Below, piece after piece: positions 1-58,632 of a stretch of 64,000 nucleotides of DNA. The stretch is from positions 185,004 to 249,003 of the forward strand of contig CAZNIK010000001.1 in NCBI GenBank assembly GCA_964573095.1, written 5' to 3'. Position 1 is the stretch's first letter. Every line of letters starts with the position of its first letter. Source of the stretch: an uncultured Candidatus Saccharibacteria bacterium. Its GTDB lineage: Bacteria; Patescibacteriota; Saccharimonadia; Saccharimonadales; 2-12-FULL-41-12. Under the pieces are notes generated by a model, which did no database searches, was not told where the DNA came from, and saw nothing but the letters and a program-made list of their open reading frames with translations. The position numbers and the translations under genes are program-made.

Positions 1-183
1 AGCCATAAAGGCTTCACGGATCACAACCGACGTTTGCTGAGCGCCTTGGCCATAATTTGAAACTCGACGTATCTCACCGTTTGTAAACGACTGGATTATT
101 GTCTTACCCAATCTATCGTTTTCTATTTTTGTTGCTAACGAACGGGTTTCGCGTATCATTTGATCGAATGATTTTTCACTCAT
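1..183 (-). CDS. hypothetical protein, N-terminal part only (ORF runs off the left edge)
   Basis: ATG at 181-183 (minus) with AGGAG about 12 nt upstream. Open frame MSEKSFDQMIRETRSLATKIEND... continues to position 1. No family recognised. Confidence 0.45.
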   Translation of the reverse strand, partial: MSEKSFDQMIRETRSLATKIENDRLGKTIIQSFTNGEIRRVSNYGQGAQQTSVVIREAFMA

Positions 184-212
184 TTTTACCTAAATCTCCT
201 TTATTGTAAATT

Positions 213-1139: not shown

Positions 1140-3435
1140 ACTGGGTGTAGCGCTCTGCTGCCAAACGCGCCAGCTCTGGATCTTCGCCTTGATTCACAAA
1201 CTTCATTGCACCCGCAATGAGAGGGTGTGCCTCCTTGAGCTTTTCGTAAATTTTTTGTGTCAATAACCTATAGCCTGGGTGTCCCTGCGGGCTGGTACGT
1301 AGCTCTATAAAATGGAACGCCTCCCTGGCATTAAAGGTCATTTTCCAGCGCATTCTATGCCCAAGTAGCGTGGCATATTGTGCTTCATGGGTGTAGCCTC
1401 CGGCTTGTAGCACGCTGTACAGTTTTAGGCTTAGGTCAAAGCAGGTTTCAAACTTGTCTGTCAGACCAGCCTCTTCAACGAGCGTCGGAACCTCGTACCC
1501 GTAGCGCGGCGTGAGCTGCTGCCAAGCCATGTCGTCAACCATTCTATGGCGCTGTAAATCCCGAAAAATACCATAATCGCACACGATGTCCCAACTGTAG
1601 TGGGCGTTCTCAATCGCTCGGCCCGGACGCTGTCTTCGGTTTAGTCGCTCGCCCATGTACGAGTTGAAGGCCTCAAGCTTTCTTTCGTAGGGCCACTTTG
1701 AAACTTCAGTTTGCAGTTCTTCAAGGGAATGAGAACTATATTCGTATAACATGTTGGGCACTAGATCTATTTCATTTCTGGGCCATACATTCGTGAGCGT
1801 AACTGCCTCGTAAGTCGTGCTGTATGTATCGGGAATATACTTATTCGCAATATTTGCTACTTGCTTTGCCGTTTCTGCGCGATAGGCAACCATTGCGCCC
1901 CCTCTGTCTGGCTTATCAGCTCGCTCCAGGAACATGGGAACAGTTTTTCGGGTTTCAGTTAAAATTTTCTTTCCTGTTTCGTTCGCTTCTACTAGTTCGT
2001 CTGATAACAGGTGCATAATAAGACTTTCGAGGGCCTGTCCTGACGCAAAGATTCCAACAGTCGACTTGGTCGCAACTGGCAAAACTGGACGTACTGCATC
2101 GCAGGCTTGAGCCCTGGTAGCGCCATTCCACGCAGTGTCTTGTTCAGCCTTTGGTACCGAAGAGATGTTGCGCACATACGCCGTTAGGTCATGTACCATG
2201 CTCGAGTATAGGTCAAAAATCTTGTCCATAGTTTTTATATACAGCGCTTTGGTTTCTTGGTCTAAGGTTGTCGGAATAAAGTATTTATATTGGCCCGCCT
2301 CATCCTTCTGATCAAAGTATATGTAGCGAGTTGATTGCTCGAGGTAAGCTGCCAGACGCCCCCACTCAAGCTTTTTGGTGAGCAGATTGCTTGCTCCCTC
2401 GACAACCACGTGCTGTCCGGCGAGCTGCTGAACCGAGTCATCACCGTACGCTGTGATGACTCTTTTGAGTAACTGCTCATCTTTTCCTGCCTCGCCCAGA
2501 AATTCGTCAAGTAGCGTTATCCTCATGTCGTCGCCACGACGGCTGAGTCTGGCCATGGCTGCAGCAATTGTAATCGGACTAATGCTATCATAAAACCCAT
2601 AGACATCACTCTTTGTGTTTGTAACGATTGACTTTAGCGCTTCTTCGCCCGCCTCTGTTATTGCGTAGCGATCATCAATTTTTTCTATCAGCTGATTCTG
2701 GGGAACAACAGCACCTTGCGCGTTCGTGAGTTTGATGTTTTTTGACGACTTGCTTGGCAGTATCGGCATTATTGTCTCCCAAATAATATTATGTATTGTT
2801 TCAATATCAAGAAGTTGATTGTTGCGTACACAGTCAAGTTGCTTGAAGTCCTTCGGGAACAATTGACACAAACTGTCATATACTTCGACGGACTTTTTCA
2901 TGTGATCAAGATCCATTTCGTGCAGATCCCTTTTTTGGGTTGTATAATCCCTGGCTGCCTTCTTATCAACCAGCTTTTGAGCAATTTCTGCGGGCACCCG
3001 AAGCACCAAAGAAAGGTCTGGTCTAGGGATATTCAAAGTCCGAAATTCAATTGCGTCAAGCCACAAGAAATAGCCTTTTCGTTCCTCTACATGATCGAAT
3101 TTGGTTCCTTGATGGGCCATATTTGACCCGGTAAATCGATTCGCCAGAACAATTTTTCCAGCTTCTAGAGCTTGCTTTATTTTGGGAGCTGCTTGGTACC
3201 TATCAAGTGCATAAAATAACGACCCGGTGTACGGCCCAACTTCCTCAGCAGTACCATACTTACCGTTCAGATACTGTTTTACAAAATAACTTGATTCTTG
3301 GTCGTACTGCGGAAAGTCAAAAGTTTCAACCTCATAGCCTTCTAGGGCAAGTTTGTGTGCCAGAAGCTTAAACTGAGTGCCCTTGCCAGAACCGTCAGTC
3401 CCCTCAAGCACAATAAAGATTCCTCTTTGAGTCAT
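1117..3435 (-). CDS. thyX: thymidylate kinase fused to a long two-lobe flavin-dependent thymidylate synthase (ThyX-like), 772 aa
   Basis: N-terminal ~210 aa has the Tmk P-loop FIVLEGTDGSGKGTQ and LDRY. The rest carries ThyX motifs split over two lobes: LEQSTRYIYF in lobe 1; FRDLQRHRM and NAREAFHFIELRTSPQGH in lobe 2. Confidence 0.8.
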   Translation of the reverse strand: MTQRGIFIVLEGTDGSGKGTQFKLLAHKLALEGYEVETFDFPQYDQESSYFVKQYLNGKYGTAEEVGPYTGSLFYALDRYQAAPKIKQALEAGKIVLANRFTGSNMAHQGTKFDHVEERKGYFLWLDAIEFRTLNIPRPDLSLVLRVPAEIAQKLVDKKAARDYTTQKRDLHEMDLDHMKKSVEVYDSLCQLFPKDFKQLDCVRNNQLLDIETIHNIIWETIMPILPSKSSKNIKLTNAQGAVVPQNQLIEKIDDRYAITEAGEEALKSIVTNTKSDVYGFYDSISPITIAAAMARLSRRGDDMRITLLDEFLGEAGKDEQLLKRVITAYGDDSVQQLAGQHVVVEGASNLLTKKLEWGRLAAYLEQSTRYIYFDQKDEAGQYKYFIPTTLDQETKALYIKTMDKIFDLYSSMVHDLTAYVRNISSVPKAEQDTAWNGATRAQACDAVRPVLPVATKSTVGIFASGQALESLIMHLLSDELVEANETGKKILTETRKTVPMFLERADKPDRGGAMVAYRAETAKQVANIANKYIPDTYSTTYEAVTLTNVWPRNEIDLVPNMLYEYSSHSLEELQTEVSKWPYERKLEAFNSYMGERLNRRQRPGRAIENAHYSWDIVCDYGIFRDLQRHRMVDDMAWQQLTPRYGYEVPTLVEEAGLTDKFETCFDLSLKLYSVLQAGGYTHEAQYATLLGHRMRWKMTFNAREAFHFIELRTSPQGHPGYRLLTQKIYEKLKEAHPLIAGAMKFVNQGEDPELARLAAERYTQFKLKNLQ

Positions 3436-17466: not shown

Positions 17467-17542
17467 TGGAGCCACGAACCGGGATTGAACCGGTGACCTT
17501 AGCATTACCATTGCTACGCTCTACCAACTGAGCTATCGTGGC
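17467..17542 (-). tRNA. tRNA-Thr (anticodon GGU)
   Basis: Reverse complement folds as GCCACGA / GCTCAGTTGGTAGAGC / TAGCA-ATGGTAA-TGCTA / ACCGGTTCAATCCCGGT / TCGTGGC-T-CCA. Confidence 0.9.
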
Positions 17543-18117
17543 AGCATCCCAACGATTATATCTCGAAGCTTCTTATTATGAAAATACACTGTCACTACAC
17601 CATACTTACTTTTTCTGCGATAGTTTCCTATTGAACCCGAAATAGTCACATGAGTTTTGTAAAACTGATCTCTTGAGACACTGAGTTGATTTGTCCAATA
17701 GAGCATCGCTTCTTCTTGATCAATATCAGTAAATAATTGCAATCCAAATTTTAATTTTGATCTTTTAACTGAGAAAAAACGCACCAGAAAACTTATGAAA
17801 GTTTCTATAAGCTTTGGGTCTGAATTTCCTAGCCTAATCGAGTGTGTGTCCGCTTTTGTGCCTTCACCCCAATAAAGCCCCATCCCCATGCCAAATAAGT
17901 TTGCGTCTTCGAGCGTTTGGGGCGACCTAAAAGTAAACGGATCACCGGCCGGATTTGCTTTTTTGTATATGGCGTCGCTTATCGACCTCCTCACTATTTC
18001 GTGTTTTTTCATCCAATACACAACTTTGTGGTGTGAACACCCAAGCGCATGCGAAATATCCATCATGGACTTCTCTTCAGTCACGTACAGTTTTTCGAGA
18101 AGTCTCTTTTCAATCAT
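17533..18117 (-). CDS. HTH-domain protein with a LAGLIDADG-like endonuclease motif (194 aa)
   Basis: N-terminal HTH (MMDISHALGCSHHKVVYWMKKHEI), then LFGMGMGLYWGEGTK resembling the LAGLIDADG core. AT-rich: 17-22 G+C per 60 nt in two hand-counted lines. The stop overlaps tRNA-Thr by 10 nt. Confidence 0.55.
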   Translation of the reverse strand: MIEKRLLEKLYVTEEKSMMDISHALGCSHHKVVYWMKKHEIVRRSISDAIYKKANPAGDPFTFRSPQTLEDANLFGMGMGLYWGEGTKADTHSIRLGNSDPKLIETFISFLVRFFSVKRSKLKFGLQLFTDIDQEEAMLYWTNQLSVSRDQFYKTHVTISGSIGNYRRKSKYGVVTVYFHNKKLRDIIVGMLPR

Positions 18118-18211: not shown

Positions 18212-18287
18212 GCCGACGTAGCTCAGTGGCTAGAGCGGCTGTTTTGTAAACAGCGGGTCGCCGGTTCGAATCCGGCCGTCGGCTCCA
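18212..18287 (+). tRNA. tRNA-Thr (anticodon UGU)
   Basis: GCCGACG / GCTCAGTGGCTAGAGC / GCTGT-TTTGTAA-ACAGC / GCCGGTTCGAATCCGGC / CGTCGGC-T-CCA. Confidence 0.9.
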
Positions 18288-18302
18288 AACCAAGCGCATT
18301 AT

Positions 18303-18388
18303 GCAGGGTTAGTGAAGCGGTCAAACACGTCAGACTGTAAATCTGATGGCTTATGCCTTCGCAGGTTCGAATCCTGCACCCTGCACCA
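18303..18388 (+). tRNA. tRNA-Tyr (anticodon GUA), class II with long variable arm
   Basis: GCAGGGT acceptor, anticodon arm TCAGA-CTGTAAA-TCTGA, variable arm TGGCTTATGCCTTC, T-arm GCAGGTTCGAATCCTGC, ACCCTGC-A-CCA. Confidence 0.9.
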
Positions 18389-18552
18389 AGCATGGTTTGG
18401 CAACTCTGCCAGGCCATGATTGGTCTAGTAGATCATGAGAACCGAAGGTTCGGCGGACGAGAAGCGCAGAGCAAAATGAGTTTACTCGTTTTTGCCGAGC
18501 ATCGCAGGAAGGAGTGTGGCGAAGCCACGCGATATCCTGCACCCTGCACCAA
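18371..18552 (+). repeat. 19-nt direct repeat of the tRNA-Tyr 3-prime end (att-like)
   Basis: ATCCTGCACCCTGCACCAA occurs at 18371-18389 (end of T-loop through CCA plus 1 nt) and again at 18534-18552. The offset is 163 nt and the enclosed segment is 144 nt. Confidence 0.85.
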
Positions 18553-18564
18553 ACCATAAGCATT

Positions 18565-19050
18565 ATGTCTATACTTGTAGCACGTCACGGCTTTTCTGTC
18601 GCTAATGATCGCGACCAATACGGCACGCCAGCCTTCGGCAATCCAGAAGCCTCACTGATGCCTCAAGGTAAAGAGCAGGCTACAGACTTAGGTGGAAGAT
18701 TAGCTAGTGAATATGGTTTTGATGTTATAAACGAGCCTGTAGCTGTTTCCATGATGCGGCGAACACAAGAAACGGCAATTGTAGCTGGATTCCGCTGGTT
18801 ACACATTTATCCCGAACTTGATGAAGAAAAAGGTGGTATGACTGATGAAGGGACCCGTGAAGCGTTGACTACCAGGCGTCCGCCCGCTGCAACTCGTGAA
18901 GCAGCACAGTACCTTATCGCCACCCCACCAAAAGAAAGAGTCTGGGTCACTCATGCGTTATTGATAGCAACTTTATGCCAGGAACTAGGTGTCTACCAAG
19001 ATGAGCGATTTACACCCAAGTTTTGCGAAATCAGAGAGCTCCCTTTATAG
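18565..19050 (+). CDS. histidine phosphatase (phosphoglycerate mutase-like) family protein
   Basis: MSILVARHGFS carries the RHG catalytic motif; downstream H in VWVTHALL. The ATG at 18565 is chosen because the track start 18514 lies inside the tRNA-derived repeat. Confidence 0.7.
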   Translation: MSILVARHGFSVANDRDQYGTPAFGNPEASLMPQGKEQATDLGGRLASEYGFDVINEPVAVSMMRRTQETAIVAGFRWLHIYPELDEEKGGMTDEGTREALTTRRPPAATREAAQYLIATPPKERVWVTHALLIATLCQELGVYQDERFTPKFCEIRELPL

Positions 19051-29137: not shown

Positions 29138-29712
29138 TATTTCTTATCCTTGGACGCAGTTTTAGCGTTTGTCTTGGTGGTTGCGGCTTTTTTCGGCTTT
29201 GAAACAGGTCGGTCAATCCGGGTAACCCATTTATCAGCCGATTCCATACTCTTTAGTGCTTCGAGCGTTGCATAGGCCGTATTAATTTTGTTTGTAGAGC
29301 CCAGCGACTTTGAAAGTGCGTTACTCACGCCCGCGACTTCAAGGACTGTGCGCACTACCCCACCAGCAATAAGTCCTGTACCAGCGCTTGCTGGCTTAAG
29401 CAGAATGTTAGAACCAGCTACTTTTGCCTGTGCTTCATGAGGAAACGTTCCTTTGTAAAGCTTCAAGGTTGTGAAGTTTTTCTTCGCTGACTCTACGGCT
29501 TTTGCCACTGCCGCGGTCACGTCGGCACCCTTTGCAATACCAACCGCAACCCGACCCTTGTGGTCGCCTACCACTACGAGTGCACGGAAACGGAATCTCC
29601 GTCCACCCTTTACTACCCGCGCAACACGATCAATGTGCACGACTCTCTCATCGTATTGTTTCTCTTCGGTGTGCGCCGGCGAGGGGCGCGTCTTTTGGGG
29701 TGTGTTAGCCAT
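29137..29712 (-). CDS. rpsE: 30S ribosomal protein S5
   Basis: IDRVARVVKGGRRFRFRALVVVGD. It abuts rplO directly, with no L30 gene between. Confidence 0.96.
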   Translation of the reverse strand: MANTPQKTRPSPAHTEEKQYDERVVHIDRVARVVKGGRRFRFRALVVVGDHKGRVAVGIAKGADVTAAVAKAVESAKKNFTTLKLYKGTFPHEAQAKVAGSNILLKPASAGTGLIAGGVVRTVLEVAGVSNALSKSLGSTNKINTAYATLEALKSMESADKWVTRIDRPVSKPKKAATTKTNAKTASKDKK

Positions 29713-30073: not shown

Positions 30074-30613
30074 CTACTTATCCTTACCTGACTTTCCGCT
30101 CTTCCTAATGATACGCTCACCAACATACTTGATACCTTTACCCTTATATGGTTCGGGCTTTTTGAGTGCTCGGATTTCAGCGGCAACCTGTCCTACCTGC
30201 TGTTTATCAATTCCCGAAATCGTAATGACATTCTGTTCGACAGTTGCAGTAACCCCTTGTGGAAGCGTATATACTACTTCGTGCGAGAACCCGAGGTTCA
30301 TTTTGATCTGATTTCCAGCCAGCGCAACCCGAAAGCCGACACCGTTTACTTCAAGTTTCTTTTCGAACCCTTTACTCACGCCAGTAACCATATTCGCAAC
30401 TAAAGTACGCATCAAACCGTGTTTGGCGCGGTGTTCTGGAATATCACTTTCTCTACTAACAATCACTTCACCATCCTGCTGCTTAACAACAATGCCAGGC
30501 ATCGTAAACTGAGACAACGTTCCTTTGGGACCGCCGACAGTAATTGCATCGTTGTCGACAGTAATTGTCACACCGCTTTCTAGCTTGATTGGTAGTTTTC
30601 CTACTCGACTCAT
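30074..30613 (-). CDS. rplF: 50S ribosomal protein L6
   Basis: MSRVGKLPIKLESGVTITVD...EPYKGKGIKY. Confidence 0.96.
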   Translation of the reverse strand: MSRVGKLPIKLESGVTITVDNDAITVGGPKGTLSQFTMPGIVVKQQDGEVIVSRESDIPEHRAKHGLMRTLVANMVTGVSKGFEKKLEVNGVGFRVALAGNQIKMNLGFSHEVVYTLPQGVTATVEQNVITISGIDKQQVGQVAAEIRALKKPEPYKGKGIKYVGERIIRKSGKSGKDK

Positions 30614-56734: not shown

Positions 56735-57058
56735 GTGAAAAAATCAAAACCAACACCACTACTTAACCAACTGCGAAAGAGGGCCAAACGCAACGGCTCT
56801 CTTTTTGACGTCTGGAGTGTAGTTCACCTTGGTACGGGTATTGTGCTGGGCTGGGTACTTGATCCCTTTGTTGCATTGGCAATTTTGGTGCTTTGGGAAC
56901 CATTGGAGATTTTTGTTCTGTCGCCCTTGCTTGCAAAAAAGGGCATTGTATTCGGCTACGAGTCGCTCCGAAACTCGCTTTCTGACATTGTGTTTGACGT
57001 AATTGGCGTAGCCCTGGGCGCTTGGTTAGTTGTCAAACTACTAGATCCACCCTTTTAG
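56735..57058 (+). CDS. small membrane protein (107 aa)
   Basis: GTG start, basic N-terminus, three hydrophobic helices. Confidence 0.55.
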   Translation: MKKSKPTPLLNQLRKRAKRNGSLFDVWSVVHLGTGIVLGWVLDPFVALAILVLWEPLEIFVLSPLLAKKGIVFGYESLRNSLSDIVFDVIGVALGAWLVVKLLDPPF

Positions 57059-57263
57059 GCTCTTAAGCGTCCCTAGTCGAGTTTGGCGCAGCAGAAGACA
57101 GTCTGCTTGAACCTTTGGACGGTATAAGTGATTGGCTACTCAGCAGTCCAAATATTGACTGAACGATACAGCTAAGAGAGGCATCAAGCAGTAAGTTCGT
57201 ACAGCAGCACCAACTCTGATACGAGCCTGTTATTACTCTCGCTAGACGCCATTTGAACCTAAG

Positions 57264-58127
57264 CTAATATCTTTGTAAGTCACTAGGGTTTCTTCCGCGT
57301 ATTTCTAATTGTCTAGCATAACTCGCATTATCCCGTTCTGCTTTAGCAACTCTTTCCTTAACATCTTTTTTACCAATGTACAGCGCGGTAGGATCGCGAG
57401 ACATAAAGCTGCTTTTTGCAACACCAAGTCTTACCAAAGTAGTAATAACAGGGTTTTTGTATTTATCTTCTGGCTGCACATACTCATCTTTTCTAACTAT
57501 TCGTCCCTTTATTACACCGCGAAGCCTAGAGGGAACTGTGTAATCAACTATTTTTTCACCATCTACCTCACTGACTTTAGGTGCTTCAAGCACAAAAGAC
57601 TCTCTTGGGTCTGGAAGCTTACCCATAACCACTTCATCATAGTCAATTCGTGGTGGGTGAAAGTGATGATTCCATACCATAACAACGGGCACACTTCTTC
57701 GTGTATCTAGCAATCCCCTTAACCTTTCAAGTTCATCTCCAACTTGCACCGCAAGTTTTACTGGGTTTGAACTTGGTCTAATCTGCTGTTCGTGTCTGTC
57801 AATGCGGAACATTTCAGAACCTCTTGATGTCCAGCTGTTCAATGGAAGGTCTGTTGCTTCAAAGGCAGCAAGAACACCCAATCTGTAAGCTATGGGCAAA
57901 AATCCATCATCTTGGGAAGCTACTTCTTGCATAAGGGTTTGTCGGGCGGCACGCTGTTCTTCTTCGGTTGCTATGTAGCCAAGTTGTTGCCTAAGTTGTT
58001 GGGGGTCGTTCTGGTTTATTTCAAATGCTACGGCATTAAAAGCACGTTGCTGCTCTGCACTAGCTGTTTGCCAAGCGGCAAACGTATCTAAACCAGATAT
58101 CCTACCTTCTACCAAAGCAGCATTCAT
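57264..58127 (-). CDS. hypothetical protein (287 aa), no recognisable domain
   Basis: Long ORF, soluble, Gln/Glu-rich N-terminal part. Hand-counted lines inside it give 22-30 G+C per 60 nt, against 30-31 in ribosomal operon lines. Confidence 0.6.
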   Translation of the reverse strand: MNAALVEGRISGLDTFAAWQTASAEQQRAFNAVAFEINQNDPQQLRQQLGYIATEEEQRAARQTLMQEVASQDDGFLPIAYRLGVLAAFEATDLPLNSWTSRGSEMFRIDRHEQQIRPSSNPVKLAVQVGDELERLRGLLDTRRSVPVVMVWNHHFHPPRIDYDEVVMGKLPDPRESFVLEAPKVSEVDGEKIVDYTVPSRLRGVIKGRIVRKDEYVQPEDKYKNPVITTLVRLGVAKSSFMSRDPTALYIGKKDVKERVAKAERDNASYARQLEIRGRNPSDLQRY

Positions 58128-58381
58128 AAACCGAAGTGTATCAGCTCATATTTAGTAGAGCAAGCACAAGCAAATTGTAATGTGCATGGTGTTGCACGAT
58201 AAGTATTTTACCTACGCCAGGCGCTAACGGGTTCTCTCTACCATAAATCAACTCGGCGATGCTCGTCAATCGAGCTGCCAGTCTTGCAAACTGCGATAGG
58301 TAATTCTCGCCTTCCCGCCTGGGCTTGAATCGAATCTCTGCCGCCCGACCATAAATAAAACCCAGCAAAGCTAGGGTGTAT

Positions 58382-58568
58382 TTTTGGTGCGCGAGAAAGG
58401 ACTTGCCATAATTGCGTTTCTTCGAGACAAGTCTCTCCAGAAACGACCAAGTAAAGAAAACATAAACTGACACTGTCAGTTTATGCCTCCGGTTCAAGTC
58501 CTCGGCTACAAAACAACAAGGCGACCACTATGGTCGCCACATTGTTTTGGTGCGCGAGAAAGGACTTG
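58382..58568 (-). repeat. 24-nt direct repeat of the tRNA-Leu 3-prime end (att-like)
   Basis: Plus-strand TTTTGGTGCGCGAGAAAGGACTTG occurs at 58382-58405 and 58545-58568. In tRNA sense it reads CAAGTCCTTTCTCGCGCACCAAAA (mid T-loop through CCA plus AAA). The offset is 163 nt and the enclosed segment is 139 nt. Confidence 0.85.
58510..58538 (-). terminator. intrinsic terminator after tRNA-Leu
   Basis: 8-bp stem GGCGACCA (58520-58527) / TGGTCGCC (58531-58538). On the minus strand it is followed by TTGTTGTTTT. Confidence 0.55.
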
Positions 58569-58632
58569 AACCTTCACGCCTTGCGGCACTAGTTCCTAAG
58601 ACTAGCGTGTCTACCAATTCCACCACTCGCGC
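58548..58632 (-). tRNA. tRNA-Leu (anticodon UAG), class II
   Basis: Reverse complement: GCGCGAG acceptor, GTGGAATTGGTAGACAC D-arm, CTAGT-CTTAGGA-ACTAG, variable arm TGCCGCAAGGCGT, GAAGGTTCAAGTCCTTT, CTCGCGC-A-CCA. Confidence 0.9.

Follow-up and report, generated by a model that had tools for sequence, protein, structure and literature searches.

What process places a second copy of a tRNA 3′ end a short distance downstream of the gene, and does so at two unlinked tRNA genes with the same offset? The question is raised by a 64,000-nucleotide (nt) stretch of DNA from an uncultured Candidatus Saccharibacteria bacterium (contig CAZNIK010000001.1 of assembly GCA_964573095.1, positions 185,004 to 249,003; hereafter the window), in which ARAGORN identifies five tRNA genes. 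The tRNA-Leu(tag) gene (58548-58632, minus strand; ARAGORN, and 58.1 bits with the Rfam tRNA model) ends in a 24-nt sequence, TTTTGGTGCGCGAGAAAGGACTTG, made up of its last 21 nt and 3 trailing nt. This sequence is present at 58545-58568 (copy 1) and again at 58382-58405 (copy 2), with 24/24 identical positions and a start-to-start distance of 163 nt. The tRNA-Tyr(gta) gene (18303-18388, plus strand), located by ARAGORN, Rfam and the repeat search, shows the same arrangement with a 19-nt sequence, ATCCTGCACCCTGCACCAA, found at 18371-18389 (copy 1) and 18534-18552 (copy 2), 19/19 identical and likewise 163 nt from start to start. Both perfect downstream copies had been reported in a first-pass annotation made from the letters of the window, and the repeat search bears them out; the remaining three tRNAs have no such 3′-end copy, as had also been stated.

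The repeat search covered the whole window for perfect or near-perfect direct repeats at most 2 kb apart and returned three families. Apart from the Leu and Tyr pairs, the window has no perfect direct repeat of 19 nt or longer at such a distance. The Leu duplication is not an artefact of one assembly, because it is found letter for letter in an independently assembled contig (Logan SRR14932522, locus L003).

The explanation favoured here, to which we assign a probability of about 0.6, is that each repeat is the 3′ end of a structured unit of ~130-165 nt, linked to the tRNA, lying in the same orientation and similar to the tRNA-linked repeats (TLRs) of E. coli, with the origin and mechanism proposed below. 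The anatomy of these units is as follows. A hairpin stands right after the tRNA (a terminator in the case of Leu), often followed by a segment antisense to the T-arm of the tRNA (anti-T segment) and by two or three hairpins. The unit ends with a tRNA 3′ fragment that begins at the 5′ strand of the T-stem and has its T-loop interrupted by hairpins, the terminus repeating the tRNA sequence exactly, starting in the T-loop and running 1-4 nt past the CCA.

Frequency and spacing of tRNA 3′-end copies

The generality of the arrangement was surveyed in all loci fetched for the analysis (designated by L numbers), a sample of ~2 Mb with 307 tRNAs that is rich in the candidate phyla radiation (CPR). A copy was counted where at least 14 of 18 positions matched the last 18 nt of a tRNA at 48-348 nt downstream, outside another tRNA. 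Such copies are far beyond chance: they occur at 18 of 237 tRNAs (about 8%), compared with 1 of 265 in the same span upstream. Clear units follow tRNA-Leu (tag, gag and cag), Tyr, Thr, Arg(gcg), Ile(tat), Ser(gga) and Val(tac), and the tRNAs for Gly and His, with matches of 14/18, probably carry them as well. The hosts are Saccharimonadales together with contigs labelled Moraniibacteriota, Paceibacterota and Patescibacteria group. Tandem units are present in L045, L173, L119 and L157, and a single unit at each of the two window loci.

The identical offset of 163 nt had led to the suggestion, beside that of coincidence, that both repeats are footprints of one recombination system or miniature element with a fixed geometry. 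Of this idea it holds that the two repeats are of the same kind and not due to chance. The fixed geometry does not hold and neither does a footprint of attachment sites or an integrase. Other tRNAs in the ~2 Mb of loci show the pattern with no single fixed offset, the spacing over all units being 103-210 nt and the length of the duplication 15-24 bp. For the 19 units outside the window the spacing is 111-210 nt (mean 154, sd 26), and a smoothed spacing distribution gives a chance of ~1% that two units are equally spaced. As the equality was noticed after the fact it is treated as coincidence, and it looks like one within a constrained size range. The two window units differ in the length of the core (24 and 19 nt), in the enclosed length (139 and 144 nt), in body sequence and in subtype, and this argues against a fixed geometry. 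The enclosed segments are indeed unlike, as had been judged by eye; their best local alignment scores 16, against 14.9 +/- 2.0 for shuffled sequences.

A conserved, covarying unit downstream of tRNA-Leu

On the minus strand the tRNA-Leu gene is followed by T1, an intrinsic-terminator-like hairpin with a U-tract (58510-58544, stem 58520-58538), in which the A-tract and U-tract lengthen the helix toward the CCA of the tRNA. T1 is conserved in the closest species (L004), and hairpins of the same style are found at other Saccharimonadales tRNA-Leu loci. The Leu-linked unit itself is 128 nt long (58382-58509), as supported by the covariance model R1 described below, by nhmmer and by folding, and consists of an anti-T segment, two hairpins and the terminal copy of the tRNA 3′ end. 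The anti-T segment, AGGACTTGAACC (58491-58502), is the exact complement of GGTTCAAGTCCT in tRNA-Leu. The minimum-free-energy (MFE) structure predicts that it pairs with the start of copy 2 and so provides the 5′ strand of the unit's closing helix. A segment of the CTTGAACC type, equivalent to anti-T, is found in most Leu-linked units.

Hairpin 1 is an 11-bp palindrome (58462-58484) whose stem and position are conserved in the homologues, where it shows the compensatory changes AAACTGAC/GTCAGTTT, AAAATGCC/GGCATTTT, GAACTGCC/GGCAGTTC and AAACAGCC/GGCTGTTT. Hairpin 2 (58415-58445) is formed by CGTTTCT...AGAAACG with an inner GAGAC/GTCTC stem; it is present in both the MFE and the centroid structure and aligns to the covarying helix 4 of the family model. 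Copy 2 (58382-58405) then supplies the 3′ part of the T-loop, the 3′ strand of the T-stem, the 3′ strand of the acceptor, ACCA and AAA. Directly after it the terminator scan places T2, a second terminator-like hairpin with a U-tract (58351-58375, minus strand), and the order T1-unit-T2 is seen again at the units of L166 and L119. The first-pass annotation had listed the terminator stem (also found by the terminator scan), the palindrome and the inverted T-arm between the two copies, and all three sets of coordinates are confirmed; these features prove to be conserved elements of the structured unit. The MFE of the unit is -45.8 kcal/mol (z=-4.4), with z=-3.0 for the antisense strand.

L013 and L073, which represent two further species of Saccharimonadales, have a recognisably similar segment downstream of the orthologous tRNA-Leu(tag). 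When metagenomes were scanned with the T-arm pattern of tRNA-Leu, 120 further loci were obtained, ~10 of which have a 3′-end copy 110-210 nt downstream. The type 1 unit so defined is a tRNA-Leu 3′ fragment that contains the 3′ strand of the variable arm, the 5′ strand of the T-stem (GGAGG), a T and an interrupted T-loop. The interruption measures ~95 nt and holds three hairpins, after which the fragment resumes with CAAGTCC, the 3′ strands of T-stem and acceptor, and CCA. The covariance model R1, comprising the T-stem closing helix, hairpins 1-3 and the tRNA-Leu 3′ strand, was built from six other Saccharimonadales units with the window left out. It matches the window at 58383-58509(-) over its full length (25.4 bits, E=8e-5), compared with 12-16 bits for plain tRNA-Leu genes. 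R1 also finds units in L132, L091, L157 and L117, and gives a weak match in L013 (7833-7962, 23.6 bits). Homology of the window Leu body to that of L117 is also detected by nhmmer (E=3e-5). The window, L117 and the first unit of L157 share a subtype that has no hairpin 3, the latter two being the closest relatives of the window unit.

In an alignment of 11 units, 92.5% of the cells are paired, compared with 71.7% in shuffles, and changes on both sides are seen in 30 of the 38 pairs, a figure reached by 0/500 shuffles. When the partners are slid as a control, pairing falls to 31-44%. Since G-U exceeds A-C (30 to 6) in the family alignment and the sense strand folds better than the antisense strand, an RNA on the strand of the tRNA is indirectly indicated.

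One member of this subtype has an unusual position. In L117 (6922-8363, minus strand) the perfect 21-nt copy of the tRNA-Leu(tag) 3′ end lies 1383 nt downstream, where it closes a normal unit, and ~1.2 kb separates T1 from that unit and encodes a membrane-anchored open reading frame (ORF) of 238 aa and one of 75 aa.

The copies track their own tRNA. Units with homologous bodies lie beside tRNA-Leu genes whose acceptor stems vary among species, and each distal copy has the acceptor 3′ strand of its own genome's tRNA, namely CTCGCGC in the window, CTCACCC in L117 and CTCGCGT in L132; the distal copies of L166 and L073 read CATCCGC, again matching the tRNA of their own genome. The units of L013, L198, L157 and L119 are partly decayed. 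Such tracking requires that the copy be renewed by new duplication or by gene conversion, or that its identity be selected. The antisense segment is similarly specific: 10/20 units contain a stretch of 9 nt or more that is exactly complementary to the T-arm of the neighbouring tRNA, a length reached in only 6% of comparisons with other tRNAs. At 12 nt the anti-T segment of the window Leu unit is the joint-longest exact complement, tied with those of L104 and L173. The Tyr unit has a weak antisense T-arm, reduced to a GAACC/GGTTC hairpin. The motif GAGAAC was rejected as an independent common element, being mostly the complement of T-arm GGTTC.

A Moraniibacteriota contig (L021) presents a unit body of ~75 nt twice, at 3065-3131 and 3260-3363 (nhmmer E=2e-11, 77% identical). 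One body is fused to the 5′ end of a complete tRNA-Arg(gcg) and the other to a 17-nt downstream copy of the 3′ end, an arrangement that bears on the origin of the units.

A RecG scan of GTDB species representatives assigns the window to Candidatus Saccharimonadales, within the CPR, and returned L004 as the closest species at 90% identity and about a dozen further species at ~60%. By blastn L004 is collinear with the window on either side of a 1448-bp segment that it lacks (57059-58506, minus strand; blastn, alignment and junction sequences). This segment includes the antisense T-arm, both hairpins, copy 2, T2 and an orphan ORF of 287 aa (57264-58127), and its right-hand junction coincides exactly with the stop codon of a convergent gene encoding 107 aa (56735-57058). 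In L004 the tRNA-Leu gene and the orthologous T1 are kept, and the stop codon of the convergent gene follows ~18 nt further on.

The 287-aa ORF has no Pfam match and no PHROG match and was on this ground rejected as a recombinase or phage protein. Nor is it a partner of the unit, because L013 and L073 have other genes downstream. At the far end of the same segment (57081-57116, minus strand) lies a third, degenerate piece resembling a tRNA-Leu 3′ end, AAAGGTTCAAG...GCGCCAAAC in place of AAGGTTCAAGTCC...GCGCACCAAAA in the tRNA, which may be left over from an older unit or an earlier junction.

Insertion with duplication at tRNA-Tyr

The Tyr-linked unit (18390-18552, plus strand), defined by folding and by alignment with L209 and L205, is a 163-bp insertion relative to its relatives. 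Syntenic loci were reached via homologues of the adjacent histidine-phosphatase gene (18565-19050, plus strand; Pfam His_Phos_1; loci L205-L210). In L209/L210 and L205-L208 (80% protein identity), which do not have the unit, the phosphatase ATG lies 14 nt after the end of tRNA-Tyr. In the window it lies 13 nt past the CCA of copy 2. The three-way alignment of the window with L209 and L205 shows one clean block difference of 163 bp, accompanied by a 19-bp duplication. The sequence that follows copy 2, AACCATAAGCATTATG, is the one found directly after tRNA-Tyr in L209 and L205 and represents the ancestral flank.

The interior of the unit begins with a hairpin whose flanks pair with the ACCA of the tRNA (18391-18418), followed by the GAACC/GGTTC hairpin (18437-18453) and a long hairpin (about 18451-18500). 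A pseudo T-arm completes the structure. It starts with TCGCAGG (18502-18508), continues with a 25-nt insert that holds a GTGGC-GAA-GCCAC hairpin (18516-18528), and resumes from ATCCTGC onward, where CCTGC pairs with the first strand and copy 2 (18534-18552) forms the end. The pseudo T-arm shows the T-stem variant specific to the window and was therefore copied from this lineage's own tRNA-Tyr. The Tyr unit has an MFE of -71.8 kcal/mol, with z=-5.4 on the sense strand and z=-3.5 on the antisense strand.

In L211 (75%), which is more distantly related, tRNA-Thr(tgt) is followed by a perfect unit with 18/18 matches at 167 nt, and tRNA-Tyr by a decayed one with 14/18 at 103 nt. Further Tyr-linked units were sought via N-terminally extended phosphatase homologues (P0024, P0047, P0015 and P0039), which were rejected as their contexts are unrelated.

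Likeness to E. coli TLRs, proposed origin and competing explanations

TLRs have been known in E. coli since 1978, without an established function or origin. By the criteria of Egan & Landy and Rudd, in the form in which they are summarised in PMC8144298, a TLR stands immediately downstream of a tRNA or rRNA gene, inside its operon or at the operon's end, shares the 18-19 bp at its own 3′ end with the 3′ end of that gene, has a period of roughly 150-180 bp, and is transcribed together with the gene and processed at the repeated end. The E. coli set amounts to 22 units at ten loci, with 1-5 units per locus; the TLR corresponds to the RtT RNA of Rfam (RF00391), and rrA, rrB and rrF are situated downstream of 5S rRNA (PMC8144298). 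The rrnB TLR has a spacing of 150 bp and lies between the terminators T1 and T2, where it is transcribed by read-through; the rrnB units are processed and are bound by Hfq and CsrA, and the authors propose that the repeated end directs processing by RNase E (PMC8144298). The rRNA-linked TLRs are conserved in many Enterobacteriales, the family having been described in E. coli (PMC8144298).

The window units match this architecture, and TLRs are their closest known analogue. Like TLRs they follow a stable-RNA gene directly and share its orientation, beginning 1-2 nt past the tRNA, and occur as one to several units per locus. The terminal identity of 18-19 bp compares with 24/24 at Leu and 19/19 at Tyr, and the period of 150-178 bp with 163 in the window (103-210 in the family). 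The paired terminators of rrnB have their counterpart in the T1-unit-T2 order at Leu. The internal design also corresponds: an antisense T-arm precedes a direct T-stem strand, after which come a structured insert and the tRNA 3′ end, and antisense segment and copy are predicted to pair in a closing helix. In K-12 the tyrT unit and the first tyrV unit measure 175 and 178 nt from the tRNA end to the end of the copy; both comprise an antisense copy of acceptor and T-arm (GGGGAAGG...GAACCTTCGA), then AAGGTTCGA in direct orientation, ~74 nt of inserted sequence and ATCCTTCCCCCACCACCA, and the MFE structure of the tyrT unit is closed by a helix of the antisense segment with the copy. The differences concern the hairpin content, which is unlike that of TLRs, the host (Saccharimonadales, in the CPR) and the presence among CPR units of several unrelated body types, even within one genome. 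By analogy, then, the window units correspond to TLRs, with all the descriptive hallmarks of these, and stand outside the RtT sequence family.

A second parallel is provided by 3′ETS-leuZ, a functional RNA that the tRNA-processing machinery cuts from the trailer of a tRNA transcript (PMC8144298). The window units may share this mode of biogenesis. 3′ETS-leuZ acts as a sponge for small RNAs and, to our knowledge, has neither a copy of the tRNA 3′ end nor an antisense T-arm.

On the favoured explanation a unit would originate when the last ~19-24 nt of the tRNA gene are duplicated, the tRNA itself remaining intact. The old downstream flank, including the junction to the next gene, would be preserved after the distal copy, as the Tyr locus shows by comparison with two relatives. 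Later the distal copy could decay, or the unit could be amplified in tandem or lost. Transcription is expected on the strand of the tRNA, by co-transcription at Tyr and by read-through of T1 at Leu, and the transcribed unit is predicted to fold as a multi-hairpin domain, in which the antisense or T-stem strand pairs with the copy to close the structure. Given its tRNA-identical end, the unit may be cut by the tRNA 3′-maturation machinery at the junction where the tRNA itself is cut. A discrete structured RNA would thereby be set free, and the transcript downstream would keep its native 5′ end. Such retention of the native 5′ junction for the downstream gene might explain why the duplications persist, whether by tolerance or by selection. 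The recurrence of the design after ~8% of sampled tRNAs and the strong covariation argue that the units are under selection and are not junk.

Several observations weigh against this explanation. L004 keeps T1 without all that follows it, which is unlike the simple insertion with duplication at Tyr. The Leu unit may be poorly transcribed, because T1 looks like an efficient terminator. At the type 1 unit of L119 (2466-2622, plus strand) the copy, CCTCGGCACCA, does not match the adjacent tRNA-Leu, TCGCCCACCA, and instead matches a different tRNA-Leu type, which suggests that the unit moved from one tRNA-Leu locus to another or that the tRNA was replaced. The structure at Tyr is deduced from folding energy, because nhmmer detected no homologue of the Tyr unit in the ~2 Mb sample. 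On the E. coli controls the RtT covariance model scores 133-137 bits; it gives no match at E<=10 at the window loci and none at E<=1 in eight CPR loci, and scans of the window loci with Rfam, at the gathering threshold and at permissive settings, return tRNAs only. Sequence links to the E. coli TLRs are limited to short motifs and a marginal alignment. A GCGAAGC box near the distal copy is common to the window Tyr unit, L021 (Arg), L104 (His) and the E. coli units; its occurrence in 3 CPR units, compared with 0.2 expected, concerns a motif picked after the fact. The best local alignment of the Tyr unit with tyrT, around GCGAAGC, is marginal, with 6% of shuffles scoring as high, and we make no claim that the Tyr unit is homologous to the tyrT TLR.

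A far wider reading can be formulated, which we regard as rather unlikely. TLR-type units would then be an ancient class found across phyla (Enterobacteria and CPR), made repeatedly from tRNA by a dedicated process that copies the tRNA 3′ of T-loop position ~56-60 together with an inverted T-arm. They would yield a structured RNA that mimics a tRNA end and has a conserved role in tRNA metabolism, and the similar layout and the GCGAAGC box would go back to shared ancestry or a shared mechanism and not to coincidence. The process could be fold-back or RNA-templated synthesis, or else insertion could be directed by an antisense T-arm that acts like a guide. Independently of this reading, the same design, with a post-tRNA unit, a tRNA-identical end, an antisense T-arm and a structured insert in the T-loop, is now seen in a distant genome-reduced lineage. 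Dozens of independent and diverse examples, together with a dated insertion and its empty site, open the way to a comparative study of structure, biogenesis and origin.

The rival that survives best, itself unlikely, is a miniature mobile element of fixed size that is non-autonomous, is mobilised in trans and inserts at tRNA 3′ ends, where it produces a target-site duplication of 19-24 bp. It would account for the Tyr event, a clean insertion with duplication, and for the coexistence of fresh perfect copies with decayed ones, as drifting target duplications would give. It would also fit the similar architecture after many different tRNAs in several CPR lineages, and the antisense T-arm could serve as a target guide. 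The bodies argue otherwise. Those of Leu and Tyr are unrelated in sequence, and there is no second copy of either in the 64-kb window and just the L117 homologue of the Leu body in 2 Mb; as mobile families normally leave near-identical copies, this scarcity counts against such an element. The near-identical copies and fixed-length target duplication of a miniature inverted-repeat transposable element were thus not found by nhmmer in the 64-kb window and the ~2 Mb of loci, the duplication (15-24 bp) and the spacing (103-210 nt) both being variable. Furthermore, the parts specific to the tRNA that lie upstream of the duplication, namely the T-stem 5′ strand, the variable-arm strand and the anti-T segment, cannot be yielded by a target-site duplication. 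The genes that flank the two loci encode HisRS, RsmD, RecG, GH15, L33, an HNH-like ORF, the histidine phosphatase and orphan ORFs with no Pfam or PHROG match; no candidate transposase or recombinase is linked among these, the rest of the window not having been scanned for recombinases.

It is a little less credible that the units are harmless debris, the neutral by-product of local partial duplication of a tRNA through slippage, fold-back template switching or unequal crossing-over in former tandem arrays. The 3′ part of the unit is clearly derived from a tRNA of the same genome, the inverted and direct copies of the T-arm suggest fold-back synthesis, and many copies are decaying. The body in L021 that directly precedes a complete tRNA-Arg also has the appearance of a decayed tandem array. 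Debris would not be expected to show compensatory changes in 30/38 pairs among species whose RecG proteins are ~60% identical, a result that points to purifying selection on structure, nor the constrained unit size. The architecture moreover recurs in the E. coli TLRs, and for the rrnB units transcription, processing and binding by Hfq and CsrA are on record (PMC8144298).

Integration scars were considered last, namely attL and attR of a phage, an integrative and conjugative element or an island that integrated at T-loop sites and whose interior was later deleted to ~140 nt. The block from the T-loop to just past the tRNA 3′ end is the classic identity block of T-loop-type integrase sites. This possibility is very improbable: although the repeats begin in the T-loop and end just past the 3′ end of an intact tRNA, the Tyr distal copy is followed by the ancestral flank as attR would be, and the region downstream of tRNA-Leu varies among close species, the interior is a conserved covarying structure found at the same tRNA in distinct species and not random remnant DNA or cargo, some 20 independent spacings are confined to the short range of 103-210 nt (L117 excepted, with its 1.2 kb of ORFs without annotated function), the T1 that is orthologous to the L004 terminator follows the proximal and not the distal copy, the T-loop half-site beside the distal copy is disrupted, being replaced by hairpins, and no integrase-family Pfam domain occurs among the flanking genes, the rest of the window not having been scanned for recombinases. 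Phage carrying the cores as attP had been put forward as a place to look; IMG/VR, searched without plasmid collections, holds no attP-like match to either core, and its three exact matches were rejected as partners, since they lie in a coding region or in the context of a phage tRNA-Val. For annotation it follows that short duplications of a tRNA 3′ end ~100-200 nt downstream should not be read as att scars of prophages or islands.

Some minor observations concern the surroundings of the two loci. An ORF of 194 aa (17533-18117, minus strand) lies between the divergent tRNA-Thr(ggt) and tRNA-Thr(tgt) genes; it has no Pfam match above threshold, and its N-terminal part matches PHROG families of HNH endonucleases (E=3e-8 and 2e-7). 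The corresponding slot in the relatives is occupied by a 92-aa ORF in L209 and, between tRNA-Thr and tRNA-Tyr, by a PDDEXK_5 protein in L205. As the small ORFs of this slot vary among relatives, the Thr/Tyr tRNA cluster looks like a hotspot for insertions of small selfish genes. The spacer after tRNA-Thr(tgt), CCAAACCAAGCGCATTATG (18283-18303), resembles CCAAACCATAAGCATTATG (18548-18567) after Tyr copy 2, a likeness that could reflect a common processing context or an old local duplication. At the Leu locus three Logan contigs from different samples, L001 and L002 at their ends and L003 at its start, all break in the anticodon arm of tRNA-Leu(tag) (~58604-58612 of the window), which is probably an assembly-graph effect of tRNA sequence common to strains. 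The third family returned by the repeat search, D3, is an 18-nt repeat of 89% identity at 29438-29455 and 30510-30527, with a spacing of 1072 nt.

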